From NCBI GenBank assembly GCA_050084515.1, contig CM114271.1, forward strand, positions 11,594,001 to 11,658,000: a stretch of 64,000 nt of DNA, read 5' to 3'. The notes beneath the pieces are model-generated. The model was given only the letters and a program-made list of their open reading frames with translations, did no database searches and had not been told where the DNA came from. Source of the stretch: Blasia pusilla. Taxonomy: Eukaryota. A program made the position numbers and the translations under genes. Positions 5,402 to 38,155 of the stretch are shown here, piece by piece (position 1 is the first letter of the stretch; each line of letters opens with the position of its first letter).

Positions 5402-6884
5402 CCATTTAATAGATGATTCTACACCAACAATTTCCCACTTCTACACTTTAGAAAAATCAAAATCCCTCTCCTTACTACATGGTCCAATCAGACATAATAT
5501 GACCCCATTAATACAGTGACTTATCTTACCAAGTGGACCAGGTTGGTAATCACTTGGTGGAACCTGTGGGGCAAGACCAGGATTTGGGGCAAAGAAATGT
5601 CCACTAAAGAAGCCAGGGGGTTGGCCCCATCCAGGAGGAATAGAAACTGCATGCCATACTTCAATATGCATCAACAATATGCTTGTAAGGGCTCATGGAG
5701 CCTGCAAAAAATGACCCCTTGTTCAAACTTCTAACTTCATGAAACATTATGGCAGGTGTTTAGGGTACCTTTTGAGTACTTGACATGGCCGAAGGCCATT
5801 GTGTGAGCATCTGGAACCCTGGGTACATCCCAGGAATCGGCCATTGTAGGACTCCAGGAAGATGGGAAAGTGGATTCTTCTCACTTTCTTTTTGTTTCTT
5901 GCCTGGACTAGGACGCTATCGCCAAACAATTTCATCTAAGTGAGTCATTTTAGTATTTGCAAGAAAGAAGCTATGAACGAATAAAGTTCTATGCAAGTAT
6001 TTCAATGTTTGCAATTAAGAGACTTGTTACTTACACATTCTTCACCCACCTTGCCACGATTCTTCTTCTGCCTTAACGGAGACCTCCCCTTGGCTACTCA
6101 AATCTGTTCTTAACCTTCATGGGAAGATTGTTGAGGTGTTGCATCATAGTCTTTATCGGACTCACTATTACTACTAAACCCTTTCTCTTCATCATTTGAT
6201 GAGTCCTCCAACATAATTGTTTTCTGTGCTACAACACTCTGAGTATTATATACCTTTGGAGTTGATGAACAAGCACCCTCGCTGGTTCTTGCTCTCTTTT
6301 GAAGAACAGGCTCGTTAAGAGGTGGAAGAACTCTCCTTCAAACCAAATTTGCCACCAATCCATCTAATGTTAGTAAGATTATAGTCACAAAGGATGAAAA
6401 TTGAAACCATTATAAAGTAAGTCCAGCAAAGTGCAAGTTCAAAGAGTACTTCTTACCGAAACTCCTCCCCAAGTTTATTTGTCGCCTCTCTCACAAAAGC
6501 CACACGCTCCTCACGTAGTCGATGGTATTTACTGCAAGGACTCTCCTCTACAATGCGGGTCTTGTCATCAGTCTCAGAGTCTCTGCCCACCTCCGATGGC
6601 ATGATCATTCAAACGCTATTGAAATTGGACCCGATGTCAAACTACAAATAAAGTCCAATTGTAAGTACTTCTCTAGGAATTTTTTTCTCAAAAAAGATAT
6701 ATGTCATCAAGTTGGGTAAAGTACCTGAAACAGATAGATCCAAAATCCAAAAAAAAATTAAGAAAACTTAATTTTCACAATACCAAGGCATACTATTATC
6801 ATTGAAAATCCTCCTCACACAAAACCTTACAAGGTAAAGTTGTTGCCCTACTTGTATAGAATAACACTAGCATTCATGAATTGA

Positions 6885-9800
6885 CTATTCATCTTGACTA
6901 TCTGAGCTACTATTTTGCTCCTTCTCATCCTCAAATGTATGAGCCTCATACAGTCCTTCATCTCCATCCTCTATACTAATGGTAGTGTAGTCCATATTCG
7001 CTAGTGCTATTTCTGCATCTGATAGTTGTATTGCCCCAACCAGGGTTACGTTAGGAACTTCACTCTCTAGTTGTGTATGAGCATCAAACCCTCTAGGTTG
7101 CAAGCTATCATTTCTTGATAAGTCTACACTCTCCCCCACTACCCGTCTTGATCGTGCTTCTTTTTGCATAACAACTTTCCATCCTAGCCTATCTTCTACA
7201 TCTCCATAAAATACTTGCTCTACTTGGCTAGGAAAAACAAAAGGATCAGAATTCAAGGGCAGGAATTTTCTAAAGTTGGCTAGTAGGAAACCATTCTCAT
7301 CATAAAGCATGTTGGGTTCTCGGGAGCCCCATGTAGATTGAACCCATTTTCCCCTCATCAAGATAATGGGTTGCTCTAACCGGCCATAATCCATAACTAA
7401 AATATCATACAAGAGGCCAACATAAGGCATGTGATGATTTGCAATGGCTTCCTCCGACGGATGAGATTCAAAGATTGATGCAATCCCCGAATCAAAGGTT
7501 GTGTAATCACTTCCATCATCTACCCTAAAATGGTTTCCATAAGCTTTCATCTTTTTGTATGACAAGTAAAACCGAGAAGGTGGGATCGACAATTTTACAA
7601 CCATATCATCAATGGCATGGCCGAAAGCTATCCATTCTATAATCTTTGGACGGATCCACTGAGAGAATGTGGAATCCCCATTGCCCTCCTCTCTGAACTT
7701 TCTGCACAATAACCAGCGATGACAAACTTTTAAAAACCAACACCTTCCATTAACTACAAAAGGTAGTTATTTCTTTCTGGACAAATAATATGATTCGATA
7801 CAAATAGAAAGGCTAGAAGGAAACTAGATGGAAAGAATTTACATAACACTAGTACTTACTCCAACCATACTGTGAAACATTCACTATTGTGGAGCACATA
7901 TGCATGTGTCACTTCAAGAATTTCAGAGCTCATTTGACGCTTGGTCCCGGCATCTTCTAACACCTCGCCAATAACTCCTTCATCCTCGCTCGCATCCCAA
8001 ACTCTTGTTTGTATGACATCATAGTTTTGCATGTATTCGGTGATGAAACCAAGAGCTTCATCAAGTAGATATCCTTCAGCCATACAGCCTTCTAGTCTAG
8101 CACGTGATCTGACATAATTCTTCAATACACCCAAATATCTCTCCACAAGGTACATCCACCGATATGGAACACGGCCACAAATATCAAGCTCTTCAACCAA
8201 ATGGACAAGGAGGTGAGTCATCACGTCAAAGAAGGAAGGGGGAAAGTGTATCTCCATGAGGCAAAGCGTGGTAGAAATGTCCTCTTTTAAGGATTCAAAA
8301 TCCTCATGGTTGTATGTCTTCACACAAAGGCGTTGGAAAATTGTGGAGATGCGCATGATAGTCATCTTGACTGGGCTTTTCAGGAGTCCACGCAAAAAGA
8401 ATGGTAAGAGTTGTTGCATAAAAATATGATGGTCATGGGACTTAAGTGCACCCACATTCTTCCGTAGAAGATGTTTCTGTAAAGCGCCAGCATAACCGCT
8501 AGGAACTTTTAGACTTTGTACCCTAGCGTCAAATATCTTAATCTCCTCAGGGGTAAGCACGTAATCTGCCTTTGGTTTTAACTTGACGGATGATCTACTA
8601 GGATGCCCTTGAAGCCACAAGTGATGCCTAATTCCCCTAACCTCCATGTCTTGCCTAACTTGAACCGAGTCCTTGTTTTTCATACCAAACAAGGTTTTCA
8701 ACATATTGTTCGCAACATTTTTTTCACAATGCATAATGTCAAGGGTATGACGGATCAATAAATCTTGAAAAATTATCAAGAAGGAATAGTGTGAATTTCG
8801 GGTTCATCCATGCACTCAACAAAGAAACCAGTAGGTGATCAAACCAACACAATTACCACAAGAAATGGAAAGTGTGGAAAAGTATGAAAAAATGCAAACA
8901 TCTTCAATAGGTTTTACTCACCTTCCAATAAGGCAGCTCGAATAGAATGCTCTTTCGTTGGACCCCATACACTTTGTAGGGATCAACCATCCTCTGCTCA
9001 CCCCTCTTGTGCCTAGGTCTTGGCGTTTCATCAAATATCTTCTTCATTTCAGCCCATCTCAATATGTCATGACTGGTCACGCGCTTGGGCCTTGGACAAT
9101 TTTCAATATGTCGATTGAAAAGATGCGCAAATTGGATCTTCCTGTAAGGATGATTCCTATCTTTATACCGTCGGTGGCCTTGAAATGTTGGCTTATGCAA
9201 AGGTTTAGAATAATATGAATCTACTTGTGGTCCACACACCACGCATGCCAGTTTTCCCTTGGTACATTGGCCAGAGACCACACCTAGCCCAAGATAGTCA
9301 CTAATAGTGCATATGATCATGGCTCTAAGAAGGAACTTATCTTGGCCTTCAGGAAGAGAACTATCATATGCAACAACTCCTTTCCAAAGTAGTTGAAACT
9401 CGTTTACAAGTAGGGCTAAATACACATCTAAGTTATGAGAAGACACTGACTCCTTACCATGAATGATCAAAGCCAATTGGAGAAAGAATTTCTTTGTACA
9501 CAACCATGGTGGAAGATTGTAGTTCACCAAAATAACAGGCCAAGTTGACCAAACTAAACTCTTTTCCCTAAAAGGATTTACTCCATCTAAAGCGAGCCCT
9601 AATCGACACTTACGAGGCTCGTTCATGAACTCTGGCCAACGCTCATCTATATCTTTCCACTGTCGACAATCTCCAGCATGACGCACTTTACCATCGCTAC
9701 TTTTGTTTTCTGATGTCCATTTCATTAGTTCAGCTATGGTCTTACATCTATACATACGTTGTAGCCAAGGGATAATTGGAAAGTGTCTGAGAACCTTTAC

Positions 9801-10098
9801 ATCAATCTTTGTTTTCCCTTGCACCTTATATCGAGGGGAGTTGCACTTTGAGCAATTCAACAAGTCCTTATGCTCTCCATTGAAGAGCATACAACCATTG
9901 GGACAACAATGAATTTGAATATAATTCAAACCCAACTTATTGATCAATGTTTTTGCATCATAGTGGTTTCTTGGAACCACATTCTCATTGGGCATGACTT
10001 GCAATGCCAGGAATTTTAGGATCTCATCCACATCAATATTTGAGACATTGTGAGTACCACATATGTTTAAGAACAACATGGTGAATGCAAGTTTGCAA
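6885..10098 (-). CDS. tnpD: CACTA TnpD transposase (Transposase_21 + DUF4218 + DUF4216-type segments), 3 exons, N-terminus missing
   Basis: IHCCPNGCMLF, LRHFPIIPWLQRMY, RLGLALDGVNPF, STWPVILVNYNLPPW, SILFELPYW | RHTLDIMHCEKNV, LKSHDHH, FPPSFFDVMTHLLVHL, RWMYLVERY | PFVFPSQVEQVFY; GT donors at 8921 and 7859. Confidence 0.92.
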
Positions 10099-10500
10099 GG
10101 TGCGGTAAGAGGAGAGGAAGAGAGAAAGAGAGGAGAGAGGAGAGAGGAAACTACCTTCAACCGAAATAGATACTTTTTTTTTAAGAGAGTTTCCGTTGGG
10201 TTGAAGAGAGGAAACTTTTTGTGTGAATTTTTTTGCACTTTTTTGTTCATTTATTAAACAATCCCATAGTTTTTTTTTCCTCTTCCATATTTTGGCAACC
10301 CCTTTGAGTCGGACGAGTTGCAAATTGCACAAAATTTACAAAACTGAGAAATCAATGGAATCATAAGTGTGGAACCAATCACTTTTTCCATCCAAGGTTT
10401 GGAAAAAATCTATCATTTGCCCCGGGCTGAATAGAGTTCAAGCTCACAGTGAAGGTTGAGAAAAAAATAAAAGTACAATCTAAAACCTCATGTTGCATCC

Positions 10501-20450: not shown

Positions 20451-22769
20451 TCCAAAGTCAGTTATTGAAAATCTTCTCAAGGCGACTTCTTTAGTTTCTG
20501 ACATTGTTTCGTCTTTGATTCTGGATGGACCACTCCTACGTGTCGCCGTTCGCCCGAGCACAATTTCCAGGTGTTCAAGATCCAGGATCCTGTGGATCCA
20601 TGCTCAGATGGGTACAGCTTAGATAGTTTGTACAATTCCCCCCCGGGAATTTACATGCAAGATAGTACCCCGCAGGAGGAAGGAAAAGTCGTCGCCACCA
20701 CGATGCAACGCTCATCGAGCTCTGCTCAAGGCCGGGTGACTTGGTGTTCGACTTAGTGGGCCTTTCGGGGCGAGTATCGAGGCGCTGGCGAGTGGCGGGA
20801 ACATTCTCGCCTCGAGGGAAGACAGAATCGTTTGACCTTTGCAAGGAGGCAAAGGCGAATCGAAAGGCTCGTTGGGGCGTACAACTCTCCACGAAGCCGA
20901 GAGCTCCGGTTCGAGCCACCCTTGGTAGTGACTCCATCGTCACTTCCAACGATTCCCAAAATCGGGAGGGCAAGGCGAAAGTGATTTTGCAAGAGCTCTC
21001 GGACGATGACGAGTGAGTTCAAAGAACTCAACGACCAGCTTGATGCACTGCGTTTGGAGTAGGGAGTTTTTGATAATTTGGCAAAAGATTTCATAGAATA
21101 GATCAAATGTACAATTCGAGCTTTTTTCGGATGATATAAAGCGAGAAGATTTTTTCGATCGATGGTGGTGCTTGTAAATGTTTTTGATCATTTTGTCTTT
21201 TCGAATGTGATCGTCTATGTACTCCACGGTCTTCTACTTTGCAACCCGTCGGATTTCTCCTGCTTGCAATTTTCACTTTATGACCACCGCAACCCGTAGG
21301 ATTTCTCCTCCTTGCAACTTTTCGCTTTTGACCATCTGGACCCTTTTACCACCTCCAGGCAACTGCGATTCGACCAGTTGCTCGATCGACCCTTTCGGAT
21401 CAGCGATCTGGCGGGCTTCTTCCTTGGCACCTTCCCCTCAACTCGTAAAGGCGGCGAGGCTTCTTTTCTTCTCTCAGGCGTGTTGGATTCCTTCTACTGT
21501 GCGGTTGCCATAGTGGTATTACCGGGGCGGAGCAGATATTGATATTGGATGGGTGTCACATTGCGGAGCGTACAAGGTATCTTTGCCGAGGAAGGCGGTG
21601 GGACTCGAGACAGTTACATGGGACCGTTATGGTGTACCTAGGGGGGCCAAGGCTCTCGAGTCGCCAACATTTTCGATCCCCGTCTACAATCGGCCGGAGG
21701 AGCCACTTGAATCCCAAGACATTCCTTTGGTACATCACCGAGGAGAGTTAGGAGTAAATTTGTAGATGACGAGGTGAAGAAATCATAGACTAGGTTCAAT
21801 GTACATTTCGAGGTTCCTTCGGAGGTAATAAGGACGAGATTTTTCAACCCATAATGGTGTTTGTAAAAGTTTTCTAGAATATGTTTTTGGACTTGTGGAT
21901 TGTGTTCTTTTAGCTACTCGAATTACAATTACGCAACCCGTATGATTCGACTTTTTGCTTTTTGTCCACCGCAACTTTTTAACCATTTCAGGCAACCTCT
22001 CGGATTCCGACAGGTTGATTGCTTGAGTGATCGGACTCTATCCGGTGAGACCAACCGGCGCATTGTGGCGGGCTTCTTGACTTTTGGCTCGTTCCCTTCA
22101 TTCGTCCAACCGGTTGTAGGCTTCTTTTCTTGTCTAAGATGTGCAAGATTCCTACTACCTGTCGGATTGCCATTTCGGATTCCCAACCCGTTAGATCGTC
22201 GTGGGTGCAGGGTGGAAGAAAATCACTTCTAAAAATCTTTCGTTTCTTATGGTGAGCTTTCTTACGGGTTGGGAGGTGCGACTTCTCGGTTTGAGCCTAG
22301 GATCTGATTTTTCACATTTCAAAAAGTTGGTCTTGAGCAGACACCATTCATAACCGACAGAAAGTTGGTTATGGGGCAATTTAGGGGAGGCCATGATGCA
22401 AGCAACAATCCCTGCAAAAAGAGAGGTACCCATCCGGGTGTTCCTCCAACAAAAATACCAAGGGCACTGCTTTTTGTTGACCGATACAGGGAATGTTAAG
22501 AAACTTAGGCTCACATGGACAGTGATGGAAAAATGTTTAGGGTGGTCTTATGATGTCTCCTTTTTTCTCACCCCCAGGAAAGAGGAGGCTTTTTTAGGGC
22601 CAAATGTGGACCACTACCTACTCTCTTCTAAAGATCTCCTGAATTTGAAAGCAAACGAAAATTTCAAATATGTCAAAAAGTTTTGAAGAGAGGAGGCGGA
22701 TTTGGCCCTTTTTTTTGAAGAGAGACACTCCTCTCTTACTCTCTCTTGCCAGAATACCAACCCCCGACA

Positions 22770-23674
22770 GGATGGTGCTAGAAATTATCTGCAAGTAAAG
22801 AAAGGGAAAACTCTTCACAAAGAAAAGGATGATGGTAGTGAGGAAGATGTCAGTCACGGCAAGAGAAGAGAACGTGGACCCGTTTCTTCCAAATTTCAAG
22901 GTCGGGCTCCTAGCCATGACCGGCACAACAAGCCCGACCTTCACGATTCAAGGCGATCAACATCTAGTCATCATGGTTGCAACTATCAGGTTCAAGCTCC
23001 GCGCGCCAGTTGTGATTCTTACAGTGATGCCCGACGCAATGGAGATTACGATCATCCGGCACTTGATGAGACACGAGTCTCGACAGAGGATACTGAGGGA
23101 CGAGATAGAGACAAGGGCAGAGAAAGAGATAGAGAAACGAGAAAGGGAAGCGAAAGAGAAAGAAGGAACGAGGATCGAGAAAGAGATACCGAATTAGCGC
23201 CAAAGGTAAAATTGGAGTTAGGGAGTCCAACATTGACAAAGATATGGGCAGGGAAGGGAGAATTGAGAGAGATAAGAGCAAGGAAAGAGAACGTGAAAAA
23301 GGAAGAGAACAAGGCAGGAGTAGGTTGAAAGGGAGGGACTTCTTTGACAAGGATAAGGACATGGAGAGGAGGAATGGAGGTGGTCAGAGCAGAGACGGCT
23401 ACAGAGATAGAGATAGAGATAGAGACAGGGAAAATGAAAGGAACAGAAGTAGGTACACCTCTAGAGATTCCAGCAATCACAAAGAGGTGGATTCAGGAGA
23501 TGGACGAGGGAGGAGCAAAGACAAAGAGAGAGTGAGAGACAAATTCCAGTCCAAAGCGGGAGCTAAAAGTTATCCATACTTGGATGGAGAAGAGAAAGAT
23601 GTGATTCATGACAAAGAGAAAGAACGAGAGAAAACTGGAGACAAGCCTTCAGGCAAAGAAATCCTTGTCGACAA
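22770..23674 (+). pseudogene. Arg/Asp/Glu/Lys-rich host-gene-like exon, 5' part (interrupted by the gypsy element)
   Basis: RDRDRDRDRENERNRSR-type low-complexity ORFs; reading frame rejoins 33358 onward once the insertion and TSD are removed (…EILVDNDLHMEKEN…). Confidence 0.6.
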
Positions 23675-24041
23675 TGTCATGACTATACGGATTATGTCGT
23701 AGAGTATGGTGTGCTAGTAGAGGCCATTCCTTATGTAGGACCGTAGTGGATTGGTAGAGATGCGGTTCCATACATAGGGTTGGGGGTTAGTCAGTTGGGG
23801 GTGACTTTCCCAGTAGGGCCCGCTCTTAGGTTGGAGGATATAAGGTGGAGTGCACTCAAAGAACAGTCACTTCTTTGAGTTGAGCCTGTTGCGTTGGGAG
23901 TTAGCCTTGGTAGTGAGTAGAGCTCTTGGCTATGGTGTTCCCGTAAGCTTCGACCTAGATTCTCCCATCGTGGAGTGGGTTTGGCTCGACTGTATGTGAT
24001 TGTAAACGTGTTTTATGACATGAGGTCTTTCACGGATTTCA
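23675..24041 (+). repeat. Terminal repeat B1
   Basis: Near-identical to 32877-33247. Confidence 0.93.
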
Positions 24042-25697
24042 CTCAAGAACAGGAGTAGATCGATGGTAACCGATTGTAGATCATAGGATCTGGTTAGGGT
24101 GATTGTGTACTCAGCCGTGGATGTTTGCGGCTTGTTGCCTATGTTGGAGGTGTGAATCAGGTGCGTGGTTGGTTGGGGAAAGAAGCGCCTTGCTGAGAGC
24201 TTTCAACGCGCTTTAGATCGCGGATTTCGTCAAGGGAGTTGGAAGTTATCAAGGATTGAAGATTACAGTTCGTGTTCGACGGTTTTCGATGTGGAGAGCT
24301 TGGAGTGCGGAAGTGTGTTGAAGTTCATCCAGATCGGGTGAGAGGTTCCTGTTGCTACTCATATTGTGATCTCCTATGAATCTATATTTCGAGTGTGTGG
24401 AGCGTTATGGATTTCTGCGTGCATGAAACTTGGCGGAAGCTATTTGCCAGTTTGCGATTCTCGGAGGTGTATGGATGACAAGTTTGTTTGATTTTTAGCT
24501 CGAGTCTGAGCTCGGTTGTAGCTGATTTTCTGTGGAGAGATAGCTATGGTGGTCAATTGAATTCTGATTGAAACAGATTTGATTTCGGTCACGTATTTGT
24601 GAAGTAATTTCTAATCGAAATTTTGCGGACTAGCTCAAGGTCTGGCTATGGTGGACAGCGGATCGGAGGGGCTGGTTGGTTGGTGACTTGTTCATTTTTG
24701 GAGACGCCTATCCCATTGGGGGCGCCCTGGTTGGACCTCTCTCCATAGCGAAGCATGGCGAAGCGTGGCGATAGGGGCATTTCTCGGCGTTTCGAGGCTT
24801 CGAGGCTTCGAGGCAACTCGTGGTAGCTCGGGGCGAGTGGGCGTGAGAGGCGGAGTAAGGAGCAAGGAGCAAGCAAGCAAGGAGCAAGCAAGCAAGCTTG
24901 CTTGCTTGGGCGTGAGGAAATTTTTGAAGGATTTGGGATTTGAGTTTTGCATAAGTGGTCACCCATCTTTGGGCTATTCTGCCTGGAGGACGCTTAACTG
25001 CTGAGTTCTTAACTATGCCAATGTCTGTTTGTTGTAGCTCATTTGGTCTTTGTTCGGAGATGTGTTAGGCGCTTTATGCATCTCAGGTTTTTGGTTGATG
25101 TACCTCTAGCGCATAGTACGGTGTAGCCTCTCCATGTAGGTGATATTTTCAGGTGCTGCGCGTTCGACTAGCACGTCATCGATCCGCGGCGGAATAGCTA
25201 TTGCGTTAGAATTGTGTGGTGGGTTTTGTGGATTCAGAGGGCACCACGTTTGGTGGATTGTGTTACCTTGATTTCCATTTGCGATTGGAGGGTTGTCGTT
25301 GGATTTCTTGTGTTTGGATCCCCTCCATCGTGCTTCTTCTGCTTGGCGCCCATTGTTAGGGTTGACGCTGATTTCGAGTAGTGTTACTCTGTGTGCTACC
25401 GGTAGTGAGGCTGGAGGGATGACGAGTAGATTGTGGGAGACTTCTTGTGGTGATGACAAGTTAGGTTGCCTACACCCATAGCTAGTAGAGCTAGAATAGT
25501 ATAGCGACATCGACGTCACTTGGTAATTTGGTGGTGGTGCGGCATCGGCGTTGGTCATCACGGAGTGTCGGGTGGTCTGGTTGGGGACCGTGTAGTGTGC
25601 GGGATGTGGTGGTTTCACACGGAGTGGATTTAGGTATCGGCTACCTTTTCCACTTCCGACGGTTGATGAAGAGGAGGACGAGGGTGTTCCAGCTCCA

Positions 25698-27000
25698 TTG
25701 ATTTGGGATATGGACGGTGGATATGGGGCCATGAAGGGCCCACGACGATACTCGGGTGCAGTGGGTACCATTGAGTTGGAGGACTTCATGCAGGAGTTTG
25801 ATACGTGGTGTGATATGCAGATGTTGCGGAACGCCACGTTGTTTACACCCTTCTTGGCTTGGAAGGGGTTGTTTCAGCACTTGGAAGGACCACCCATGGA
25901 TGATTACCATGAGTTTAGGAAGGACCATGTTCCTGAGATTGAGGCATGGACACAATATTGGTCTCCAGGCTATGTGTCTATCATCCATGGTGGTATTGGT
26001 AGTAGTGCTCCTACTATGCCAGCCAGCCCGACGTTGAGTGGTACGAGTACGAGCCGGAGTGGGGGTACCAGTGGAGGTACTAGTGGGGATACTAGTGGAG
26101 GTATTAATGCCCCACCATCGTTCACCCCGGTTGCAGAGTTCTTCAAGAGGTTGAAGAAGAACTATCAAGGAGTGAAGACGGAGAAGTTGAGGAATCTTCA
26201 GGACTTTGAGCGAAAGGCGGTGAGAGTCTTAAGTGAGGCATACACAGCGTATGCCACGCTTGATTTTAGTTACCAGGTGTGGCGAGGATCGAGCGATCCG
26301 ATTTTGGTATGGGATCTTGGGCAGAGATTTGCCGTAAGGGTGCGTGATGCTACTCTTATGAGTGATGATTCACCCACATTGACCCATGTGTTTGCTTTAT
26401 CTCGAGAAGATTGAGCTTAACATGGTGAAGGAGAGAGTGGTGACATCCGCATTCAAGAGGGGATACAACTACTACTTCTCGGGTTCAGCCGCCCACCTCT
26501 GATCTCGTAGTAGTGGTGGTGGTAGTAGTAGTGGGAGTCGTGGGGTACACGCGACCTCAGTCAAGTCCTAGAGGACATTTGTGCAGAGACCATTGCCTTC
26601 ATTTGCTGCCCGAGCAAGGACAATCATGTTGGACATGTGGAGGTGATCATGTTAGGAAGTTTTGTCCCCAAGAGGATGGGAGGCGGACTTTGGAGGATGG
26701 GCCTCGATCGGCCCCAACTCGGTGTGATCATTGCGGGGAGACTAGGTCATCCTCGAGGCGTTGCTTTGATCTTCATCCGAGTTGAGATCAGGCCGTGGCC
26801 GTGGTGGAGTAGCTCGAGAGGCCGAGGTGGTAGAGGTGGTAGGGGTGGTAGAGGTGGACCGGTGGTTGGAGAGCCTACGGTGGCTACCCCTACCACTCTG
26901 ACAGTCGACTATGGCTTCGAGGATTGAGCGGTTGGAGGCGGTTGGCTACTATGGTTGGTATCCATAATAGATCGGTTCGGGGGCGGGGCTTCCACCTCTT
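25698..27000 (+). pseudogene. gag: gag with two CCHC Zn knuckles (frameshifted)
   Basis: YSGAVGTIELEDFMQEFDTWCD; CWTCGGDHVRKFC; CDHCG(RLGHP)..C. Confidence 0.8.
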
Positions 27001-27599
27001 ATGGAGGGATGATCTCTCTTATATGGCGAAAAGGCCGGGTTGAGGCATCAGTGCGATTCTGAAAGGAGCCACTCGGCGTCGAGCCACGTGGTGCTCTTTG
27101 TGGAGTTGGACCCCTGAGAGGGGGTGGGGGGGCGGCTAGGCTTCCCAGTCATTCTTGTTGCCTCGAGGTGCTTAGGACTCCATCCATGGTTCCTCGCGAC
27201 CTATTGAGCCGGCAGTGGGGCCGAGGCATCTACATCGGCGTGTAGTAGACACGGATCAGCATCGATCGATTGCGGATGGCAAGCCGGTGTTAGGATCCCC
27301 ATTGTTTTCGACCACGAGGCGATGGCTTTAGGAGTTGACTTAGCTCTGTATTTCAGCTAAGCGACCACATTGTGTGACGTGGGGTATTCTTGCTACTGCG
27401 TGTTGAGGTGGATGAGGATGTTGCGATGGAGCGACCCTCTATGTCGGGAGTAGCATTGAGTACGGTGCTACTTGGCGGCGGGCGGCGAAGATGGATGCAT
27501 TACCGGCCCGGCCAGCCATTGATCGTGAGAGGCTTACACTGGTGTATGTATGTTGGACAACCGGAGTGGGATCTTCCGATTGGTGAGTCCTCAGGCAGT

Positions 27600-27970
27600 G
27601 TATAGACCAGATAGAGTCTTGTTAGGCTCGGTGCCCAACCTTTGATGTTGGGAAAGGCGGCATGTATTGGTTTGGGTATTCGGAGGTGAGCTTGAGCCTT
27701 GCCCATTCAGATTCAAACATCACTTGGGCAGCCAATGATAGGTCTCAATTCATGACACGGGAGAAGTTTTCTGTATAGTTGAGACCAGATCATGCGATTG
27801 ATAGCTCCCGGTTGGGAGTATCTGCGGTAGTCACATCGGCCGAGTCGTATGATGTACTAGTTGGAGGAGCGATGTGTACCCGATGGGTTTCAGATGGATT
27901 TGGTGAGGCAGCGTCTTATAGACCAGGTTGGCGATCCGAGGATGGGCGTATGAGCCAAGTTCTGTGAGAT
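27600..27970 (+). pseudogene. Aspartic protease (damaged)
   Basis: RVLL-SGAQPLMLG (DSG active-site position with a deletion); YDVLVG downstream. Confidence 0.65.
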
Positions 27971-28299
27971 TTATTTACGGGGCTCGACCATGAGGGTCTT
28001 CCCCATGTGTTAGCATCTGTGGTGGTTTTAGTGGAGTAGTCACTTGGCCAGAGACTTTTTGGAGGTAATGTTTTCGCTATGGATTCTCCTGCATGAGGAG
28101 GTAGAGGAGGTCCCTATTTTTGCAGTGGCATCCTCATCGTTGGATGTGCCACTTTGGAGTTCGAGGCGGTGCACTACGGCAGAGGCGTCGCCTAGTGCAG
28201 GAGGCTTGGTGTGAGGCTGTTATACCTCACGAGGAAGAGGAGGCCCCACGGCGGACTCCTACTTCTGGTCCAGTTGGGTTATCCCCTTTGGATACTACA

Positions 28300-29275
28300 C
28301 CCATTGTATGGCAGTATCCGCCGGAGGGTATTTGTGTGTTAGATCTCTTTGGTGGGATTAGCACTGGTTTGGCTGTAGTGTTGCAGGCCGGTATTCCTGT
28401 GCGGAGATACGTGTATGTGGAGCGAGATGAGACGGCCCAGAGAGTCTCATCTCGACATATTGGTCAGTTGATGCGGAGATACCCTGAGTTGTTGCCGCCA
28501 TCAGCTATTCGTGGGTACCAGCGTGCTTTACCATCACACATTGCATTGTTGGGGGTGCAGGACCTTGAGAGAATTGGTCCTGTGGATTTGGTGATTGCTG
28601 GATGGCCATGTCAGGGTCATACACATGCTAGTCGTGGTGAGGGATTACATGACCCTAGGTCTCGATTGTTTTGGGAGATGTTACGGATGTTCGACATCTT
28701 GAGTTCATCAGCACATGCTCTAGCTTACATTCGGAGAATGTTCCATTGTTAGGTGACACTCGGACCCGGATTATGGCGAGTGTTCATCAGTGCGGTCTTG
28801 GATTGGACCAGCGGTGTTGTTGGATGCTGGCCATGAGTTGGCTCGCGTGCACATCGTCGAGCTTGTGGTGGACAAACTTGTTGCCTAGGAGGTTCTCGTC
28901 GAGCATATGATGCGGTCTGGCGGGATCCTCGCCTTATAAAGTGGATAGTATCTTGAATCTTGGCGACTTTCTCAAGTGGTGAGGGTTATTGATCGGTCAC
29001 CCATGGCGGTGGTGAACGGTGTGGGCGACCTAGGATGGCACTACCCACATTTGTGAGTTTTTCAGCGTCACATGCCTCTGAGGAAGGTGGTCGGGGCTTG
29101 TATGGGATTCTCATGTGCGGCGGTTGGTGTTAACGCCGATGAGAGAGAGAGCGCGATGGGATTTGCTCTTTTGGTGTGACATGGTTGCTTCTATTTACGA
29201 GGCTTCACAACGTCATGTGTTGGGTCACGCCATGGACCTGAATTGTTTGACTTGGATTTTGAGTCTTGGTATGGC
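28300..29275 (+). pseudogene. C5 cytosine DNA methyltransferase domain (Dnmt3-like) within pol
   Basis: Motif I VLDLFGG, II YVERD, IV DLVIAGWPCQG, VI ENV, VIII (R)xRLWWTN, IX ERERAMG-like, X LGHAMD; several frameshifts. Confidence 0.9.
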
Positions 29276-29739
29276 GAGCGGCGTCGACCGGACTATGTCG
29301 TGGGTCTTCCACCCCTTGTAATGAGCTCGATGGCTCCGGGATGGTAGAGGCATCGGTGGGCGAGGAGAGTAGTATTTTGCATCCTTGGAGTAAATGGGAT
29401 GTAATGGCTGGGCATGTGGAGTTGGTTGCTCATGGTGGTGGAGGAGTTATTTGCTCAGATGATGGTGTAGCTAAGGGTGTACCATCTTGTGAGGGGGTTG
29501 CATAGCAGCCAATGGCATCGTCCTCTCCCTCTAGTGTGCCAGTGGAGGAGACTTGGGAGCCATTACTTGGGCCCAAGCTTACGGGAGGTGAGAAACGACG
29601 CTTGACACAGTTCCTACGTGCTTATAGGAGTTGTTTTGCCTTTAGCATGAAGGAGTTGGGTTCCCTGGTTGGACCGGTATACGGATTGATTTGGCTAGTG
29701 ATACGCCAATCTTCCGTCGTCCCTACCGATATAGTGATA

Positions 29740-30975
29740 TGGAGAGGGAGTTGATTGAGTAGGGCGTTGGACCTTTTGGAGGTGGATTAGTGGAGTTGTC
29801 GCATGGAGAGTATGCATCGCCCTTGTCATGCTGCTAAAAAAGGATATGCATGGCAACTACGGATAGGCGGATGTGTGGAGATTCTTGTCTATCAATCGGC
29901 AAACCAAGGCCGATAGGTATGCCATGCCTACACCGAGGAGATCTTTGATGTGGTGGGACAGGCAAAGATTTTCAGTACTTTGGATCTTCGGGCACGATAC
30001 CATCAATTTGATTCGGGAGAGTGACAAGGCCAAAGACAACATTTTGGGGAGTCAACTCTCATGGCAAGGATTGTTTGTACATGTGGAAATTCTTACCCTT
30101 TGGGTTGAAGAATGCACTGCCGAGTTTCAAAGAGTGATGGTCTGGATCCTAGCAGGGTTGGATTTTGTTCGGTGTTACATTGATGATATCTTGGTGTTCA
30201 GTAACACGGTGGAGGAGCATCAGATACATTTGCAGATGGTGTTTGAGCGGTTGAAAGCTCATGGTCTACGTTTGCATCTAGGAAAGTGTAAGTTCTTCCA
30301 TGAGGATGTTGAGTACTTGGGTCATGTGATCTATCCAGGTGGTTTGGGAGTTCAGCAAGCAAAGGTGGAGGCTATTGCACTTATTCCGCATCCGGTAGAT
30401 GTGAGTAGAGTTCGAGCATTCATGGGATTGGCGAACTACTATCGGAGGTATGTGAAGGGATTTAGTGCTATGGCAAAGCCTTTGAACCAATTGCTGAAAT
30501 CAGATCAAGAGTGGCATTGGGGAGATGATCAGGAGAGAGCTTTTGTGGAGCTTAAGGCCCAGTTGGTGGCGGCGCCTATCTTGAGGAGACCTATCAGAGG
30601 GCGCCCATTCAAGTTACACACCGATTGGAGTAGGTTGGGACTTGGAGCGGTGTTGACACAACACGATGATGAGCACATCGAGTTTGTGGTGGCCTATGCA
30701 AGTCGTTCGAATAATGCAAAAATGAGTCGTGCTATAGTTCATATGAGGGAGAGTGCTTGGCGAGTAGTGTGGTGTGGCACACTTTAGGTGTTACTTGTTT
30801 GGCACCCAGTTTTACCCTTTTCTTGATCACCAACCGCTCAAGTGGTTGATGGAGTCGGACAAGCTTACGAGGGGAAGCTTGCACGGTGGGCTCTTATCTT
30901 ACGGGAGTATGACTTCCGGGTGGTACATAGACCGGAGTTGCCAACCTTGATCTTTGATGGGTTGAGTAGGAACCC
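29740..30975 (+). pseudogene. pol: Reverse transcriptase + RNase H
   Basis: YIDDILVFS, LHLGKCKFF..VEYLGH, VRAFMGLANYYRRYV, LHTDWSRLGLGAVL, VAYASRS, DHQPL, ARWALIL.EYDF. Confidence 0.93.
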
Positions 30976-31289
30976 ATGTACTAGCCAAGAGGATACAACA
31001 GGGGCTAGATTGCATGGCGAGGTTGATGAGGAGATGGTGCCAGGTTGGCATGCATCCGCCTTTTTATGTTGGTTAGGGGTGGACTCTAGTATGGAGGACC
31101 ACATGATATCTTACTCTAGTCAGAGGGTAGATGGCCAGCCTTCAGATCCTAAGGTTGGAGATGGTGGTACGGATCAGCGTGATATTCATGATGATGCGTT
31201 GGTGTTGGAGTTCCTACGGACCGGTAGGGTGCCAGGCATAGTGAGTGCCAAGGAGCGAGACCGTGTTCTTCAACGTGCTAAGAGGTATT

Positions 31290-32450
31290 GATTGGAGGGA
31301 ACACATATTCTCCGCGTATGGGAGGATGGTAGAGTACGAGTAGTGCTACATTTGGCTCAGAGAGAGCGCATTGTGCGACATGCCCATGAGGAGTTGGGAC
31401 ATTTTGGGGTAAAGCGTACGTATAGCTTACTCCTTGGCCAGTATTGGTGGCGTGGCATGCATACTCAGTGCAGTGATTGGTGTCACGTTGTATGGTTTGT
31501 GACCGGGTGAGGCATCATTTAATGCCCTACACCACAATTACACCCCTTGCCTATTATGGGGTTGGGTTACCGTTGGAGTGTGGACTTTGCGGGACCGTTA
31601 CCGTTGGTATGCGACATCATCGATATGTGTTGGTGATGGTGGAGCACTTCTCAAGTGGATTGAGTTGGTGGCATTACCGGACAAAGCGAGTGAGGAACGG
31701 CGTATGCGTTTGGATAGAGTGCTTAGTCATTTTGGTGCACCGGTTGAAGTCTTGACCGACCAGGGTAGAGAGTTTGAGGTGAGTTTGGTCTTGTGTGACA
31801 AGGCGTTGATTGATCATCGGACCACGTCTCGAGATCATCCAGGCGGATGGTTTGGCTGACCGTGTGGTTCAGGGCGGTGAAGAGGGCATTGTGCAAGTAT
31901 GGCCTCTGAAGGGCATCTTGGAGACCAGGATATTCGATTGCCATGGTTAGCCATGGGGTATAGGTTCGATCGCCAAGCATCCTTGGCTTCCTTCTCACCT
32001 TATTTTTTCATTATACGGCCGAGATCGGACTTGCCGCGAAGCAATTAGTGTCGGAGTCTAGTGAGGTGGTGAACCTTGATGACCCGGAGAAATGTGGATG
32101 AGGTGTGTTCTCGAGCGGAGCTCTTTCGGAGAGTTATGCCAATAGCCTTTGAGAATCTTGCCATTGCTCAACACAGGGATACGTTGCGGTATGCAACCAT
32201 TCAAGGTGGAGGTTATCGACCATCGATTTGTAGGTTCCATGTGGGGGACTATGTCTATTTGCAGCAGATTGCCCGACAACGTTGGATGTGTGGCGGGGCG
32301 CACTATTTTCGAGTCGCGAGGTGTTAGCTTCTAGAGTTCTCATGTTGGAAGGTCGTGATGGAGTTGTTTGGAAGGACCATGTGCGTAATTGTGCGCCATG
32401 TCATCTTCCAAATGTGGATGGTACTGTTGACCCAAGCTTAGCCATGATAC
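31290..32450 (+). pseudogene. DDE integrase (HHCC finger + core), frameshifted
   Basis: HEELGHFG..CMVC, WSVDFAGP, VLTDQGREF, AIAQHRDTLRYA, HVRNCAPCHLP. Confidence 0.88.
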
Positions 32451-32460
32451 GTGCTTGAGA

Positions 32461-32601
32461 TGCATGTTGTGTGGGTCTGCTGGTAACGCAGCCCGTATGT
32501 TGGTGTGTGATCGGTGTTCTAGGGGTTGGCACATGATGTGTTTGACTCCACGTTTGGATGTTGTTCCTACTGGAAGTTGGGTTTGTCCTCGATGTACTTA
32601 G
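32461..32601 (+). CDS. C-terminal PHD finger of the pol polyprotein
   Basis: CMLC..MLVCDRCSRGWHMMCL..WVCPRCT* = C4HC3. Confidence 0.92.
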   Translation, partial: CMLCGSAGNAARMLVCDRCSRGWHMMCLTPRLDVVPTGSWVCPRCT

Positions 32602-32757
32602 GAGAGGTAGATGACTTGATCTTTGCATGATATGGATTACAGATGTGCGACTAACGATGGGACAACCTAGCACCCGGCCTTCTGATTCGGGCACCCAAGA
32701 AGGTGTATAGCATGTAGTAGATGTATAGGGCTACAGGAGTTAGAGGACCTAACCGCT

Positions 32758-32772
32758 AGTTAGGGGGCGAGT
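32758..32772 (+). other. Polypurine tract
   Basis: AGTTAGGGGGCGAG immediately before repeat A1. Confidence 0.65.
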
Positions 32773-33353
32773 TGTGGTACATTTTTGTTTGTGGATACTC
32801 GTCTATGTTATGTATGTATGTGAGTATGGTATGTCGGCGATGTATGTTGTATGACGATGTGGATTACAGACGATATTGTCATGACCATACGGATTATGTC
32901 GTAGAGAGAGTATGGTGTGCTAGTAGAGGCCATTCCTTATGTAGGACCATAGTGGATTGGTAGAGATGCGGTTCCATACATAGGGTTGGGGTTAGTCGGT
33001 TGGGGTGACTTTCCCAAAGAGGGGCCCGCTCTTAGGTTGGAGGATATAAGGTGGAGTGCACTCAAAGAACAGTCACTTCTTTGAGTTGAGCCTGTTGCGT
33101 TGGGAGTTAGCCTTGGTAGTGAGTAGAGCTCTTGGCTATGGTGTTCCCGCAAGCTTCGACCTAGATTCTCCCATCGTGGAGTGGGTTTGGCTCGATTGTA
33201 TGTAATTGTAAACGTGTTTTATGACAGTAGGTCTTTCACGAATTTCAATTGTGGTACATTTGTGTTTGTGGATACTCTCGTCTATGTTATGTATGTATGT
33301 GAGTTTGGTATGTCAGCGATGTATGTTGTATGACGATGTGGATTCGCACGACA
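32773..33353 (+). repeat. 3' A1-B2-A2 repeat block (A1 32773-32875, B2 32877-33247, A2 33250-33353)
   Basis: TGTGGTACATTT..GATGTGGATT occurs twice, flanking a copy of B1. Confidence 0.92.
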
Positions 33354-33357
33354 ACAA

Positions 33358-34119
33358 CGATTTACATATGGAGAAGGAAAATAATCTGACCAAGAACAAA
33401 GATTCCGGTAGAGATGGAGAGAGAGAGGGGGCTGACGACCGAGGAGTTCGAGAGTGCAGTGTCTCAGACTTAGACAAAGATAAGGCCTCCAGAGATTGGG
33501 ATGACGACAAGGGTCAAGATCGCCGGAAAGGACAGGATCGGTACTCTGAGGGGGTTGATCGAGAGCAGAAATTGAAAGACAGTAAAGATACTGTCCGGCC
33601 TAAAGATAGGAATGAACAGAAGGAACAAGATGGTCCTAGGGACAAAGCTAAATGTAGAGACAGAGATCTGTAGATTGAGAAAGATGAGTTGGGAACCGCT
33701 AGTGAGCTCTCTAAAGTCAAGTATCGGCAGGAGAAGATCAGCAGCGGGAACAAAGTGAAAGATGGGGGAAATAGTGTTCCAAGGGACAGAGTTCAAGGGA
33801 AAGACAGACGATCCGAGGAAAGACAACGTGACAATGAAAAGATTCCGCATAGTCCCGTTGTGGCAAATGATCACGGAGTGAAAAGGAGCCAATTGAGCAC
33901 GAAGGAGTGTGATGGTGATGGAAACTCAAAGTTAGAGACAAGGGATGGAGAAAGTAGAAGCGATTGGAAGGTCAGCAAGGGAGATATGGAGAGTGCAGGG
34001 CAGAGGGCACGTTTATCTGGTTTTTCTAGTGATTCAGAAAAGAAGTTGCCAAGTTCATCTAATGGTAAAGTTACAAAAGAGTCAAAGTGGGGTCCTCAGG
34101 CATCAGATTCTGCCATTGT

Positions 34120-34120
<1 letters not shown>
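33358..34120 (+). pseudogene. Continuation of the R/D/E/K-rich host-like exon, truncated at ~34120
   Basis: In frame with the 5' part; contains one stop (33671) and ends …ESKWGPQASDSAIVES where a repeat unit begins. Confidence 0.55.
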
Positions 34121-34592
<472 letters not shown>

Positions 34593-35170
34593 AACACTTC
34601 CAATGAAGCAACGGTGGTTATGCCAAGCTAGTTGAACACAAGGAATAGATTAGCACATTGTATTCTGCATTGGCAATACCAAAAACTGATCAAACAACGA
34701 TTGATAAACGCAACAGAAGAATATTTGCAGAGTACGACACAAAGCGGGACTCATCTTTTTATTCAGTATCAACAAGTGACAAAGTGGATAGGCGTGCTGA
34801 GAATGAACAGCTAGTAGAGGCGACCATAAGAAGTATAAGGACAAAGCTCACCCGAGTTTGACGACTTCGACTAGCAAAATGGAGATGCACAAAGGTGATT
34901 GCACATTCACAAGAGTAAGCAACCAAAAGTTGATTGGGAGCGCTAAGAAGGCAAACTCTTGGCAGAAGCTGATTGATCGCCCGCACAACATCTTACAACC
35001 AAGCAGCAAAAGAACATACTATGAATTGAGAGTAAGAGAGCTTGACGACAAGAACTAATTGAGCGGGAAAAAGGAAGGCGGTGTGGACTGAGATGGAAAG
35101 GAAATAACGCAAGATCGTAGAGTTGTTGTAACAACTTCTTCATTGCTAACTAGAAGCGCACCTGATCTGA

Positions 35171-35542
<372 letters not shown>

Positions 35543-38155
35543 TAAGTGCATATCCAGCCGTCGTGAGAACAGATAATGTCAAATAACTTTGATATCCGTA
35601 AGCCTTCCAAAGGTCGGGCGGACGGTAGTATTTGTAAGTAGCGTTCTTGAGTTGTGCACCTCGGAGTAGAGTAAGAGAGGGAGAGAGAAGGAAGGAAGGA
35701 GGTAAGTAAGGGCTTTGCAGTGCATGGCCCGTAGTCCAAACCAAATAACAATCCAACTCACGCAATATGGTTTCTCTGTCCCTGACAGGGAGGAGTTGGA
35801 AAGACGCATGAGGTGTCCTTCCATCTCCCAGCTTGGGAGAGAAAGTGATCAAATGTGTAGAAAAGAAAAATGCGTAAAAGAGAGAAAGGGCACCTTCAAG
35901 ACTCAGGACCCGAGGGATCGTTTCCAATCTTTGTGGGCTCGACCGGTGGTTGGATGCTACACCTCTCCTTCCCCAAATACGCACTTCGTGCTTATGGCAG
36001 GCATTGGCAGCTAAAGGCCCTTCGTCCCACCCATTCAAAAGCTTTGATGCGACCTTTCTAGCCGGAGTCACAGATGCGGTAGATATTTCTTCCTTGTGCT
36101 CTTCCTAGCCCGAGTCAGAGATGCTTTGTTTGCCCTTTCTTCGTGCTGATCCCTACTTGTCCACGGATGAATCCACACTCTTCAGAAAATAGATACAGAT
36201 TGAGGATCGATGCTATCATCACGAGTTCTTAAACTTCCAACTTAGAGCTTTCTCAAACTTTCAACCTAAAGCATATGCGCGGCCGCGGGACGCGAGCTCC
36301 AAGAGTGTGGGAAAGTACTAGGAGTGCGGGAAAGTACTTAGCGTCTCAAAACTCAAAAAGAGGGTCTAAACAAACTGATGTGGCTTTATTTTATTAGGAT
36401 CTTATTTGCCAACTTGGCAATAATTTTAATGTACCAACTATTTTTAAAATTAGATGGAAGTTTTTTTAATCCTACCAGTTCTAATCTCGTCTTATTTTTA
36501 CATGTCATGTTATGAATTAAATTTTAATTTTAATTAATTCATAAGAAATGCCATGTCTAAGTCCTTTTTGCAGTTATCTAGTCTTTCCTAATGACATGCC
36601 ATTAATTTATAGTAATTATATTTTACAAAATAATTAATTAATAAATTTCCATGTCATATCCTCTAGTCATTTTTTGTAACTAATTAATACTATAGTATGC
36701 CACCTAGACCTCTCTAGTTACATGTAGTTGTATTGGACTTCAATTGTAAGCAACTACTAAGCCATATCCACGTCCTTTATGCACTAATCTAGTCATTTAT
36801 AATAACATGTCATTACTTTGTAATACTTATTTTTAAAAATATTTTAAAAATCTAGAAAGAAAATTCCATGTCATATTCTCTAGTCATTCTTAGTAACTAA
36901 TTAATACTATATTTTGCCATCTATGACTCTTTAGTTATATGTAGTTGTATTTTAGTTGTATTGGACTTTAGTTGTAAGTGACTTAGTGCTAAATTCGCTA
37001 TATTCCTTCTAGTGTGATGAGCAGGGGTTTTTATTGGCAAACTTTCGCAAGTGCTTACCACTTGGACAAGAGCCATTTGTCTTTCCTAGTCAAGTAGAGC
37101 AAGTCTTCTTTGAAAATATAGAAGAAAAACTAGGATGGAAAATAGTGCTCCAAAAGCAAGTTCGAGGTAGAAGAGTGGTTTGTGGTGGTGTTGACCAGGA
37201 TTCTTATGATCACCTTTACTTATTTGGATTCAGACCTCACTCAAGTATAGATATAGAAAATGTGGAAGTATTTTTAGAGGGGGCTACTACTCTTACAATT
37301 GCAGAACGTGTTGTGGCTTCAAAAACATCTCAATCTGCTTCTATAGAAGACACAACCATGAATTCACATTCTGATATAATATATGAAGACTCATCTCATG
37401 ACTGAGCCACTAATTATTCATATTTCCAAAGCCAAGGCTATTAAGTGACTTGGATCATCCTAGTACTTGAGGAGATATTCTTACAATTTTTTTTTGGTAT
37501 TTTCATAGAAAGAGAATGGCATACTACTGCATTCTGAATATTGTATGATATGAATAAATGTGGTGATACTAAGTGGGTTCAAAGTGTAAGATATTCCTTG
37601 CACTTATACTACTATGCATTGTCTTAGACTCTTATGCCTTTTGACAGTTTTCCCATGATTATAATTGGCTACTTGTTACGGTTTTAATTTATAGTCATCC
37701 ATGATACTGTAAAACCATTCGAGGAAAACCTTTCGCTACACTTTAGTGGATGCTACCAAGGGAATTGTATGTCTACCAATTTGGAATATATGTGGTACTA
37801 TCAGCGAAGATGGTCCTACATGTGAGGACCTTGAGTATTTTCGTGCCAAGGAGGAGCGTGCAAACTTGCCAAAGAGTTCCGGTCAGTGGTATAGTTTATA
37901 GATTGATGAACTTATGCAGTATAACCAATTCAGCTTCTTCATTTACTAATTTTGAATGATATGCATCAACATCGTTAGTAACCCTTTTATGTTCTCAGCT
38001 GGTTTGTTGTATGATTTATTGCAATGGGGAATATATTATGCACGGTCTAATCCCGGTTTTCCTTCTACATCTACAAAGAAGAAAAATCGGGATTGGACCA
38101 TTCATAATATATTCCCCATTGCAATAAATCATACAACAAACTAGCTGAGAAACCG

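Follow-up and report, generated by a model that had tools for sequence, protein, structure and literature searches.

The stretch of DNA considered here, called the window below, comprises 64,000 nucleotides of Blasia pusilla (NCBI GenBank assembly GCA_050084515.1, contig CM114271.1, positions 11,594,001 to 11,658,000 of the forward strand). A C5 cytosine methyltransferase domain of the DNA methyltransferase (DNMT) type lies at positions 28300-29275. It belongs to a 9,679-bp Ty3/gypsy element at 23675-33353, which is inserted in an open reading frame (ORF) and flanked by a 4-bp target-site duplication (TSD). The element is very probably a dead, exon-inserted long terminal repeat (LTR) retrotransposon of the Gypsy-DNMT3 kind, to be understood in the way set out below. 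Its parts follow each other as A1, leader, ORF1 (Gag with CCHC knuckle, protease, DNMT), TAG CAG CCA, ORF2 (reverse transcriptase (RT), RNase H (RH), DDE integrase (INT), PHD finger), polypurine tract, B1, A2 and B2:

23671-23674, unstranded: left target-site duplication ACAA, flank ..GTCGACAA / TGTCATGAC..
23675-24041, plus strand: repeat A1, the 5' long repeat, TG...CA, matching A2
25710-26780, plus strand: Gag region, decayed, found by tblastn with residues 1-229 (58% identity) and 297-352 of Marchantia protein P0172
about 26612-26779, plus strand: CCHC zinc knuckle in the Gag region, CWTCGGDHVRKFC in ORF 26444-26785
27470-27961, plus strand: aspartic-protease region, decayed, with LLGS at the active site against LLDSG in intact P0172
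28300-29275, plus strand: DNMT3-like C5 cytosine methyltransferase domain, motifs I-X in order over three frames
29276-29502, plus strand: C-terminal tail of ORF1 past the DNMT, ending ..EGVA and stop
29503-29511, plus strand: in-frame stop and leaky-stop context TAG CAG CCA (matching UAG-CAR-YYA), by sequence
29512-30900, plus strand: start of ORF2, reverse transcriptase and RNase H, decayed, from Pfam matches in ORF 29867-30787 and tblastn
31300-32270, plus strand: DDE integrase (zinc-binding domain and core), decayed, from tblastn with P0058 and with ORF2 of locus L029
32452-32595, plus strand: PHD-finger remnant at the integrase C-terminus, CLRCMLCGS...GWHMMCL...WVCPRC, from tblastn and the homologous stretch of L029 and L031
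32762-32771, plus strand: polypurine-tract-like AGGGGGCGAG, immediately before B1, read from the sequence
32773-32876, plus strand: repeat B1 with a short linker to A2, TG...CA in relatives, 3' end degenerate here, 94.8% identical to B2
32877-33247, plus strand: repeat A2, matching A1
33250-33353, plus strand: repeat B2, the actual 3' terminus of the element (...CGCACGACA), matching B1
33354-33357, unstranded: right target-site duplication ACAA, flank ..CGCACGACA / ACAACG..

The boundaries are well defined. When the element and one ACAA are deleted in silico, the surrounding ORF becomes continuous (..KEILVDNNDLHMEKENN..). A1 and A2 (367-371 bp) differ by 11 mismatches, 8 of them transitions, and 8 gap columns over 365 aligned bases, a divergence of about 3%. 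The repeat layout is thus A-coding-B-A-B. Together with a 4-bp TSD, it was found in all three copies that have both ends, namely the window (ACAA) and the metagenome loci L023 (AAGG) and L015 (CACA); the repeats of L007 are consistent with it. ORF 29867-30787 matches RVT_1 (55.7 bits) and RT_RNaseH_2 (63.1 bits), and residues 614-780 of the L029 ORF2 correspond to Integrase_H2C2 and rve. The PHD finger (PF00628) scores 40.6 bits in ORF2 of L029 and 39.9 bits in that of L031. The protease is recognizable in relatives: P0015 reaches 30.9 bits for gag-asp_proteas, and L029 and P0206 have weak Asp_protease_2 matches below the cut-off. At the position equivalent to the polypurine tract of the window, L023 and L007 carry AGGGGGGCGAG. 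Two other identities were rejected. A DIRS retrotransposon is ruled out by the DDE integrase (rve, Integrase_H2C2) and by the TSD of the three complete copies, and a chromovirus by the ORF2 of L029 and L031, which has the PHD finger and no Chromo match.

All main C5 cytosine methyltransferase motifs, including the catalytic PC and ENV, are present within 28300-29275, where the first-pass annotation of this DNA had placed them. A three-frame translation of 28000-29620 with a motif look-up gave motifs I, IV, VI, VIII and X in linear order, with no rearrangement (the names I-X are those of the classical literature on these enzymes):

28348-28368, plus strand, frame 1: motif I, FGGISTG
28600-28617, plus strand, frame 1: motif IV, GWPCQG, with PCQ at 28606-28614
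28734-28742, plus strand, frame 3: motif VI, ENV
28837-28860, plus strand, frame 1: motif VIII, VGSRAHRR
28863-28886, plus strand, frame 3: LWWTNLLP, after motif VIII
29141-29164, plus strand, frame 2: ERESAMGF
29211-29261, plus strand, frame 3: motif X region, RHVLGHAMDLNCLTWIL

The longest open piece of the domain (28105-28752, 215 aa) is the only one of nine window ORFs scanned that matches PF00145, and with 25.3 bits it exceeds the Pfam gathering threshold (cut-off 22, E 1.3e-5); the scores of intact relatives are 35.6-51.1 bits. Searched against 1.84 billion representative proteins, the same piece found 1337 at E<=1e-3, 321 at E<=1e-10 and 12 at E<=1e-30, the best at 8.1e-64. Given these counts and E-values, the identity of the domain is far beyond chance. 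Between 28680 and 29380, following the protein requires at least eight changes of frame (1>3>1>3>2>1>2>3>1), and a codon alignment with one relative contains 21 indels, 15 of them frameshifting, and two stops in 449 codons. Because its motifs are scattered over three reading frames, the window copy is dead. It is a fossil that makes no protein.

The first-pass annotation had described the domain as embedded in pol, between protease and RT. The gene order holds, but the attribution to pol does not, as a conserved in-frame TAG (29503-29505) parts the DNMT from the RT and leaves it at the end of ORF1. In this clade, the DNMT is the C-terminal domain of a Gag-protease-DNMT ORF1 and not a domain of ORF2. 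Open ORF1 proteins of 1248-1369 aa spanning gag, protease and DNMT exist in P0172, P0174, P0206 and L029. In L029, both ORF1 (1369 aa) and ORF2 (1047 aa) are open, and the DNMT lies in the polyprotein without introns. The tail of ORF1 ends, each time before the stop, in ..QCVA or ..EQVS in Marchantia, ..EGVA in P0173 and ..KVAA in L014. Distant clades have a single uninterrupted gag-PR-DNMT-RT-RH-INT ORF (PR, protease), for instance P0058 (2188 aa).

By profile and predicted fold, the methyltransferase domain is of the DNMT3 type. As to the type of METHYLTRANSFERASE, a search of PDB sequences with a profile of 25 relatives retrieved DNMT3A (2.5e-28), DNMT3B (1.2e-26) and DNMT3C (2.3e-26), followed by plant DRM (1.5e-15), M.HhaI (1.3e-8) and DNMT2 (5.9e-6); DNMT1/CMT was not among the 55 PDB matches listed. 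An AlphaFold model of the relative P0169 (predicted local distance difference test, pLDDT, 80.8; predicted template-modelling score, pTM, 0.82) was compared with solved structures by Foldseek. All 32 matches shown within ranks 1-50 were DNMT3A, DNMT3B or DNMT3C, and the target-normalised template-modelling (TM) score was 0.78-0.84 against isolated methyltransferase-domain chains. Animal DNMT3A/3B/3C are thus the best matches in profile and in structure. They also have in common with the element domain the signatures RxR-x-[FW]W-x-N-L after motif VIII and E-x-ER-x-x-GF before motif X. In contrast to animal DNMT3, the element domain has neither PWWP nor ADD domain, and the sequence identity is about 20%. 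Plant DRM enzymes have a rearranged motif order, whereas that of the element is linear.

The domain is shared with relatives in other land plants, which agrees with the proposal of the first-pass annotation that the lineage persists in a land-plant-like genome. Relatives in Marchantia, Calypogeia and Sphagnum are 53-72% identical to the window ORF. The search for named matches covered 2346 candidates of 378-2000 aa, 55 of which passed E<=1e-5. One of the 55 is from Sphagnum troendelagicum (72% identity) and 15 are from Marchantia polymorpha (53-68%), where P0172 represents 18 member sequences. Calypogeia fissa (2), Sphagnum fallax (1), Closterium (2) and Mesostigma (1) are also represented. 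A profile search at E<=1e-15 gave 227 proteins, and the 120 listed also include Marchantia paleacea, Sphagnum tenellum and another Closterium. Among the 55 named matches and the 120 listed profile matches, none was from Klebsormidium. Limiting the search to proteins of 1491-4255 aa gave 8 matches.

In metagenome sequences, 189 relatives were detected, and 80 loci were retained from them. The 27 loci L001-L027 are 53-83% identical in amino acids to the query protein P0169. Metagenome loci are collinear with the window element at 64-79% nucleotide identity, L023 over 8170 bases including the repeats. The DNMT is present in all 23 close metagenome copies aligned, so it is not restricted to the window copy. 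One DNA sequencing run contains 50,686 contig pieces aligning to a 2.4-kb stretch, which marks high repetition and is not a copy number. Two sequencing runs whose labelling as RNA is uncertain have contigs, 90-95% alike, over much of that region, which is no evidence of transcription.

A tree of 94 domains (FastTree, 323 columns, LG+gamma, midpoint-rooted) was built from transposable element (TE) domains only and left out those covering less than about 90% of the model, including partial named Sphagnum proteins. Moss-type copies and the window copy form one group (support 0.90), which joins six Marchantia proteins (0.94). Calypogeia and L014 are part of a 20-tip bryophyte-type clade with support 1.0. 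A group of its own (0.94) unites the elements ordered RT-RH-DNMT-INT-PHD. On a distant branch of the DNMT family, a Dam-type N6-adenine methyltransferase domain (PF05869, 45.9 bits) accompanies the DNMT in P0041, P0157 and P0158; these proteins resemble the dual-methyltransferase elements described in the text of a 2026 preprint (bioRxiv 10.64898/2026.05.21.726589).

The substitution pattern indicates that the DNMT is under purifying selection in intact relatives, and neutral evolution of the domain does not describe the data. For the DNMT, pairs of intact or near-intact elements give a ratio of nonsynonymous to synonymous substitution (dN/dS) of 0.10-0.17 (L029-L031 0.12, L029-L028 0.125, L031-L028 0.10, L014-L007 0.17). 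Between the window and the 23 copies it is 0.203-0.319, with a median of 0.258; for RT-RNase H, the window and 13 copies gave a similar 0.223-0.307, with a median of 0.279. Motif IV reads PCQ in 63 of 90 full-length domains, ECQ in 22, PCE in 2 and DCA in 1, and the catalytic cysteine is kept in 88. Motif VI is ENV in 67 of them, and at least 18 more have EN followed by another residue. The bryophyte-type clade keeps motifs I, IV (PCQ), VI (ENV) and VIII (RxR).

The stop between DNMT and RT is conserved. In the window, the TAG is followed by CAG CCA, and the same frame runs on into the RT. In all 24 aligned moss-type sequences (the window and 23 loci), which share ancestry and count as about one lineage, the stop stands in one column, as TAG in 18 and TAA in 6. 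The next codon is CAA in 23 and CAG in one, and the one after it CCC in 22 and CCA in two. Outside this group, L014 has TAG CAA CCA, with ORFs at 3195-4508 and 4512-6809 in a single frame, L029 and L028 have TAG CAG TTA, and L031 and L074 have TAG CAA TCA. L030 reads TAG TAG CCA, the second TAG apparently being a mutated CAG. The exact consensus UAG-CAR-YYA with an in-frame downstream ORF is therefore found in the window, L014, L028, L029, L031 and L074. In Marchantia, Calypogeia and several metagenome clades, ORF1-type proteins end at the equivalent place. The Marchantia gene models P0181 and P0184 continue from the DNMT region into downstream RT sequence, presumably bypassing the stop by a predicted intron.

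Tobamoviruses use UAG_CAR_YYA as their type I leaky stop (Firth & Brierley 2012, PMC3542737). The window, L014, the pair L029/L028 and the pair L031/L074 match its consensus exactly, and in both systems the downstream ORF encodes a polymerase. The tobamovirus stop lies within the replicase; here it follows the protease and DNMT of a retrotransposon, and readthrough is predicted from the sequence context.

The closest published system is KnitGypsy-Dnmt3 of the charophyte alga Klebsormidium nitens, a Gypsy element with a non-rearranged Dnmt3 and Ka/Ks <0.2 (de Mendoza et al. 2018, Nat Commun 9:1341, PMC5890265). As the first-pass annotation had stated, the main text of that study describes retrotransposon-encoded DNMTs in dinoflagellates and in Klebsormidium. 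The repeats of KnitGypsy-Dnmt3 are described there as the "same as" those of the DIRS retrotransposon, with the layout A-coding region-B-A-B. The algal element, as presented in that text, and the bryophyte element are both of the Gypsy type and have a linear Dnmt3-like domain in a polyprotein, the A-coding-B-A-B layout and a streptophyte host. Purifying selection on the DNMT is similar as well, with Ka/Ks <0.2 in the one and dN/dS 0.10-0.17 among intact or near-intact relatives of the other. The shared layout suggests possible descent from the Klebsormidium elements. The two differ in the host, a charophyte alga as opposed to land plants (mosses and liverworts). The leaky-stop split of ORF1 and ORF2, the 4-bp TSD and the PHD finger are found here and unmentioned in the passages on KnitGypsy-Dnmt3 (PMC5890265). 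Marchantia, readthrough, Gag and target site do not occur in that main text, and its survey table includes Physcomitrella and Klebsormidium and is without Marchantia or Sphagnum.

Other retrotransposons also carry DNMTs. SymbioDIRS-Dnmt3 and SymbioLINE-Dnmt are described in the same main text, and SymbioDIRS shares the Dnmt3-type domain and the A-coding-B-A-B layout. The former has a tyrosine recombinase and the latter is a LINE, whereas the element here has a DDE integrase and target-site duplications. EpiLTRs and DAM-LTRs, in turn, are LTR retrotransposons which likewise combine a methyltransferase with a reader domain among their chromatin modules. According to the preprint text, their DNMT is sister to DNMT4 and is accompanied by a DAM adenine methyltransferase and a chromodomain, and DAM-LTRs are reported absent from Streptophyta (bioRxiv 10.64898/2026.05.21.726589). 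The element here differs from EpiLTRs as presented there in its DNMT3-like domain, its PHD reader and the lack of a DAM match in the L029 ORFs. The preprint text mentions "streptophytes (Gypsy-DNMT3)", and the words bryophyte, Marchantia, land plant and moss do not occur in it.

The following scheme is proposed for live members of the family, which has open copies on metagenome contigs and intact ORF1 gene models in Marchantia polymorpha. Their DNMT would be an active cytosine-5 methyltransferase dependent on S-adenosylmethionine, an activity that motifs, predicted fold and selection make plausible. It would be translated with Gag and protease at every ribosome passage, while RT, RNase H, integrase and PHD finger would be made only through occasional UAG readthrough promoted by the tobamovirus-type CAR-YYA. 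The DNMT would then be made, and probably packaged, at a Gag-like abundance. Once packaged, it may sit beside the new cDNA or the integration site and methylate either, much as the first-pass annotation had conjectured, and the PHD finger of the integrase probably reads histone tails and so selects integration sites. The position of the DNMT in ORF1 and the PHD finger on the integrase point to an action on chromatin or cDNA during integration. The most specific version, that live members carry Gag-protease-DNMT in every virus-like particle, methylate nascent cDNA before PHD-guided integration and so deliver insertions already bearing the host CG mark, is put forward tentatively and is more doubtful than not.

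Several observations weigh against parts of this account and are considered here with the rival explanations. The DNMT stretch could be foreign to the element, a host DNMT3 fragment or another insertion in a single nested or chimeric copy, as the window copy is heavily damaged and nested transposons abound in the window. This is extremely improbable. Metagenome copies are collinear over gag-PR-DNMT-stop-RT at 72-78% nucleotide identity, and L023 aligns over 8170 bases; the open ORF1 proteins cover all three domains; and no repeats or target duplication surround the DNMT stretch. As to the broken state itself, part of the window frameshifts could be assembly errors instead of decay. All 23 close metagenome copies have at least one stop in a 472-codon stretch. 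The dead moss-type copies have a median dN/dS of 0.58 among themselves (243 of 253 pairs with dS>0.05) and a diversity that is equal across codon positions (0.092/0.088/0.091), which implies decay after insertion, with most sampled copies dead. Selection is also tighter on RT-RNase H than on the DNMT (0.036 against 0.12 for L029-L031). The pairing of a DDE integrase with an A-coding-B-A-B layout likewise weighs against the account.

A more serious rival is that the DNMT-like domain of live elements is no longer a DNA methyltransferase and serves either as a module that binds DNA or chromatin without catalysis or as an RNA methyltransferase whose substrate is the transcript of the element. In yeast, de novo methylation was not observed with the Klebsormidium Gypsy DNMT, in an assay in which human DNMT3B failed too and which the authors called inconclusive; they raised RNA methylation for another TE DNMT, and the SymbioDIRS-Dnmt3 domain of Symbiodinium methylated CG de novo in the same host (PMC5890265, main text). 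The 22 relatives with ECQ instead of PCQ also fit this rival, as does motif X, which is mostly GQ, GR or GH and not GN. DNMT3A itself, however, has GR at this place, and active DNMT3A/B are the nearest solved structures. The motifs kept throughout the bryophyte-type clade, the nearly invariant catalytic cysteine and the low dN/dS of the DNMT likewise argue for catalysis on DNA, and loss or change of this function is judged unlikely.

Readthrough, too, has a competitor. ORF2 might be made by termination and reinitiation, from an internal start or from a separate or spliced mRNA, so that the stop merely ends a Gag-PR-DNMT gene. An ATG stands two codons past the stop in 23 of the 24 moss-type copies, including the window, and reinitiation there is possible. 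In addition, the CAA CCC of 22 of these copies lacks the final A of CAR-YYA. The start codon is not a constant feature, however: L014 has GTG, with its first Met at residue 48, and the ORF2 of L029 has no Met in its first 50 residues. ORF2 abuts the stop and is always in the same frame. Furthermore, the residues after the stop vary between lineages (Q-L, Q-S, Q-P) and the bases CAR-YY(A/C) are kept, which implies a constraint on the nucleotides. Such alternative routes to ORF2 therefore appear improbable; UAG readthrough is itself inferred from the sequence context of the stop. A structure in the RNA was set aside as evidence for it. The consensus fold after the stop has -28.11 kcal/mol with a weak covariation term of -0.89 kcal/mol, and the hairpin overlaps conserved coding sequence. 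In that region (29514-29640 of the window, and homologues), the pyrimidine run CCTCTTCCTCT is able to base-pair with a purine stretch some 55 nt downstream, and an invariant hairpin, CTTGGGAGCC...GGGCCCAAG, would lie between the two.

These elements present a puzzle, namely a transposon that carries the type of enzyme by which hosts silence transposons. The one published Gypsy example is algal (Klebsormidium), and its enzyme assay in yeast showed no methylation, according to the main text of PMC5890265. The present results extend the Gypsy-DNMT3 kind from an alga to land plants, and it is common in bryophytes, including Marchantia polymorpha. A literature search, mostly without subscription journals and without figures, found no bryophyte copies in print. 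M. polymorpha is genetically tractable, and its copies would bring the question of transposon DNMTs within experimental reach. If pre-methylation of the cDNA proved true, a retrotransposon would set its own epigenetic state. For annotation, bryophyte models named "DNA (cytosine-5)-methyltransferase" or "hypothetical protein" that match this family are transposon ORFs and not host methylation genes.

Further observations concern the element and its surroundings. No tRNA-like primer binding site was found downstream of A1, and the leader (24042-25680) has no similarity to related copies. In L011 (6945-7057) and L009 (about 7999-8111), the internal region passes through a B repeat directly into unrelated sequence, without A2, as expected if recombination between B1 and B2 had excised A2. 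Across the family, G and T are frequent and C is scarce on the sense strand (G 0.32 and C 0.18 in the window element, G 0.29 and C 0.17 in L023). The relatives L023, L007 and L014 share this composition, so the strong GC skew seen here in the window is a family trait. The observed/expected ratio of CpG is 0.28 in the near-intact L014 and 0.76 in the window copy. The open frame around the element (22687-23674 and 33358-34522, plus strand) is rich in R, D, E, K and S, with the empty site ..KEILVDN/NDLHMEKENN..; two pieces of it were scanned and gave no Pfam match, and a host gene and another repeat are both possible.

Elsewhere in the window, a second gag-protease copy of the same superfamily (57479-61169, plus strand) is 39-43% identical in amino acids to Marchantia P0172. 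It stops just short of the expected DNMT start and adjoins an inverted third copy, and is thus silent on the presence of a DNMT. This third copy (64000-62711, minus strand) extends from RT to integrase, is 70% identical in nucleotides to 31700-32770 and runs past the end of the window. Two long (GA)n/(CT)n arrays (34117-34650 and 35168-35590) each follow about 300 bp that are mutually 96% identical, suggesting a local duplication with a spacing of about 1050 bp. CACTA/En-Spm-type transposase ORFs occupy 6888-10250 on the minus strand (Transposase_21 (tnp2) 204.9 bits, DUF4218 125.8 bits and a weak DUF4216), and the window begins with another Gypsy RT/RNase H fragment (15-915, plus strand).

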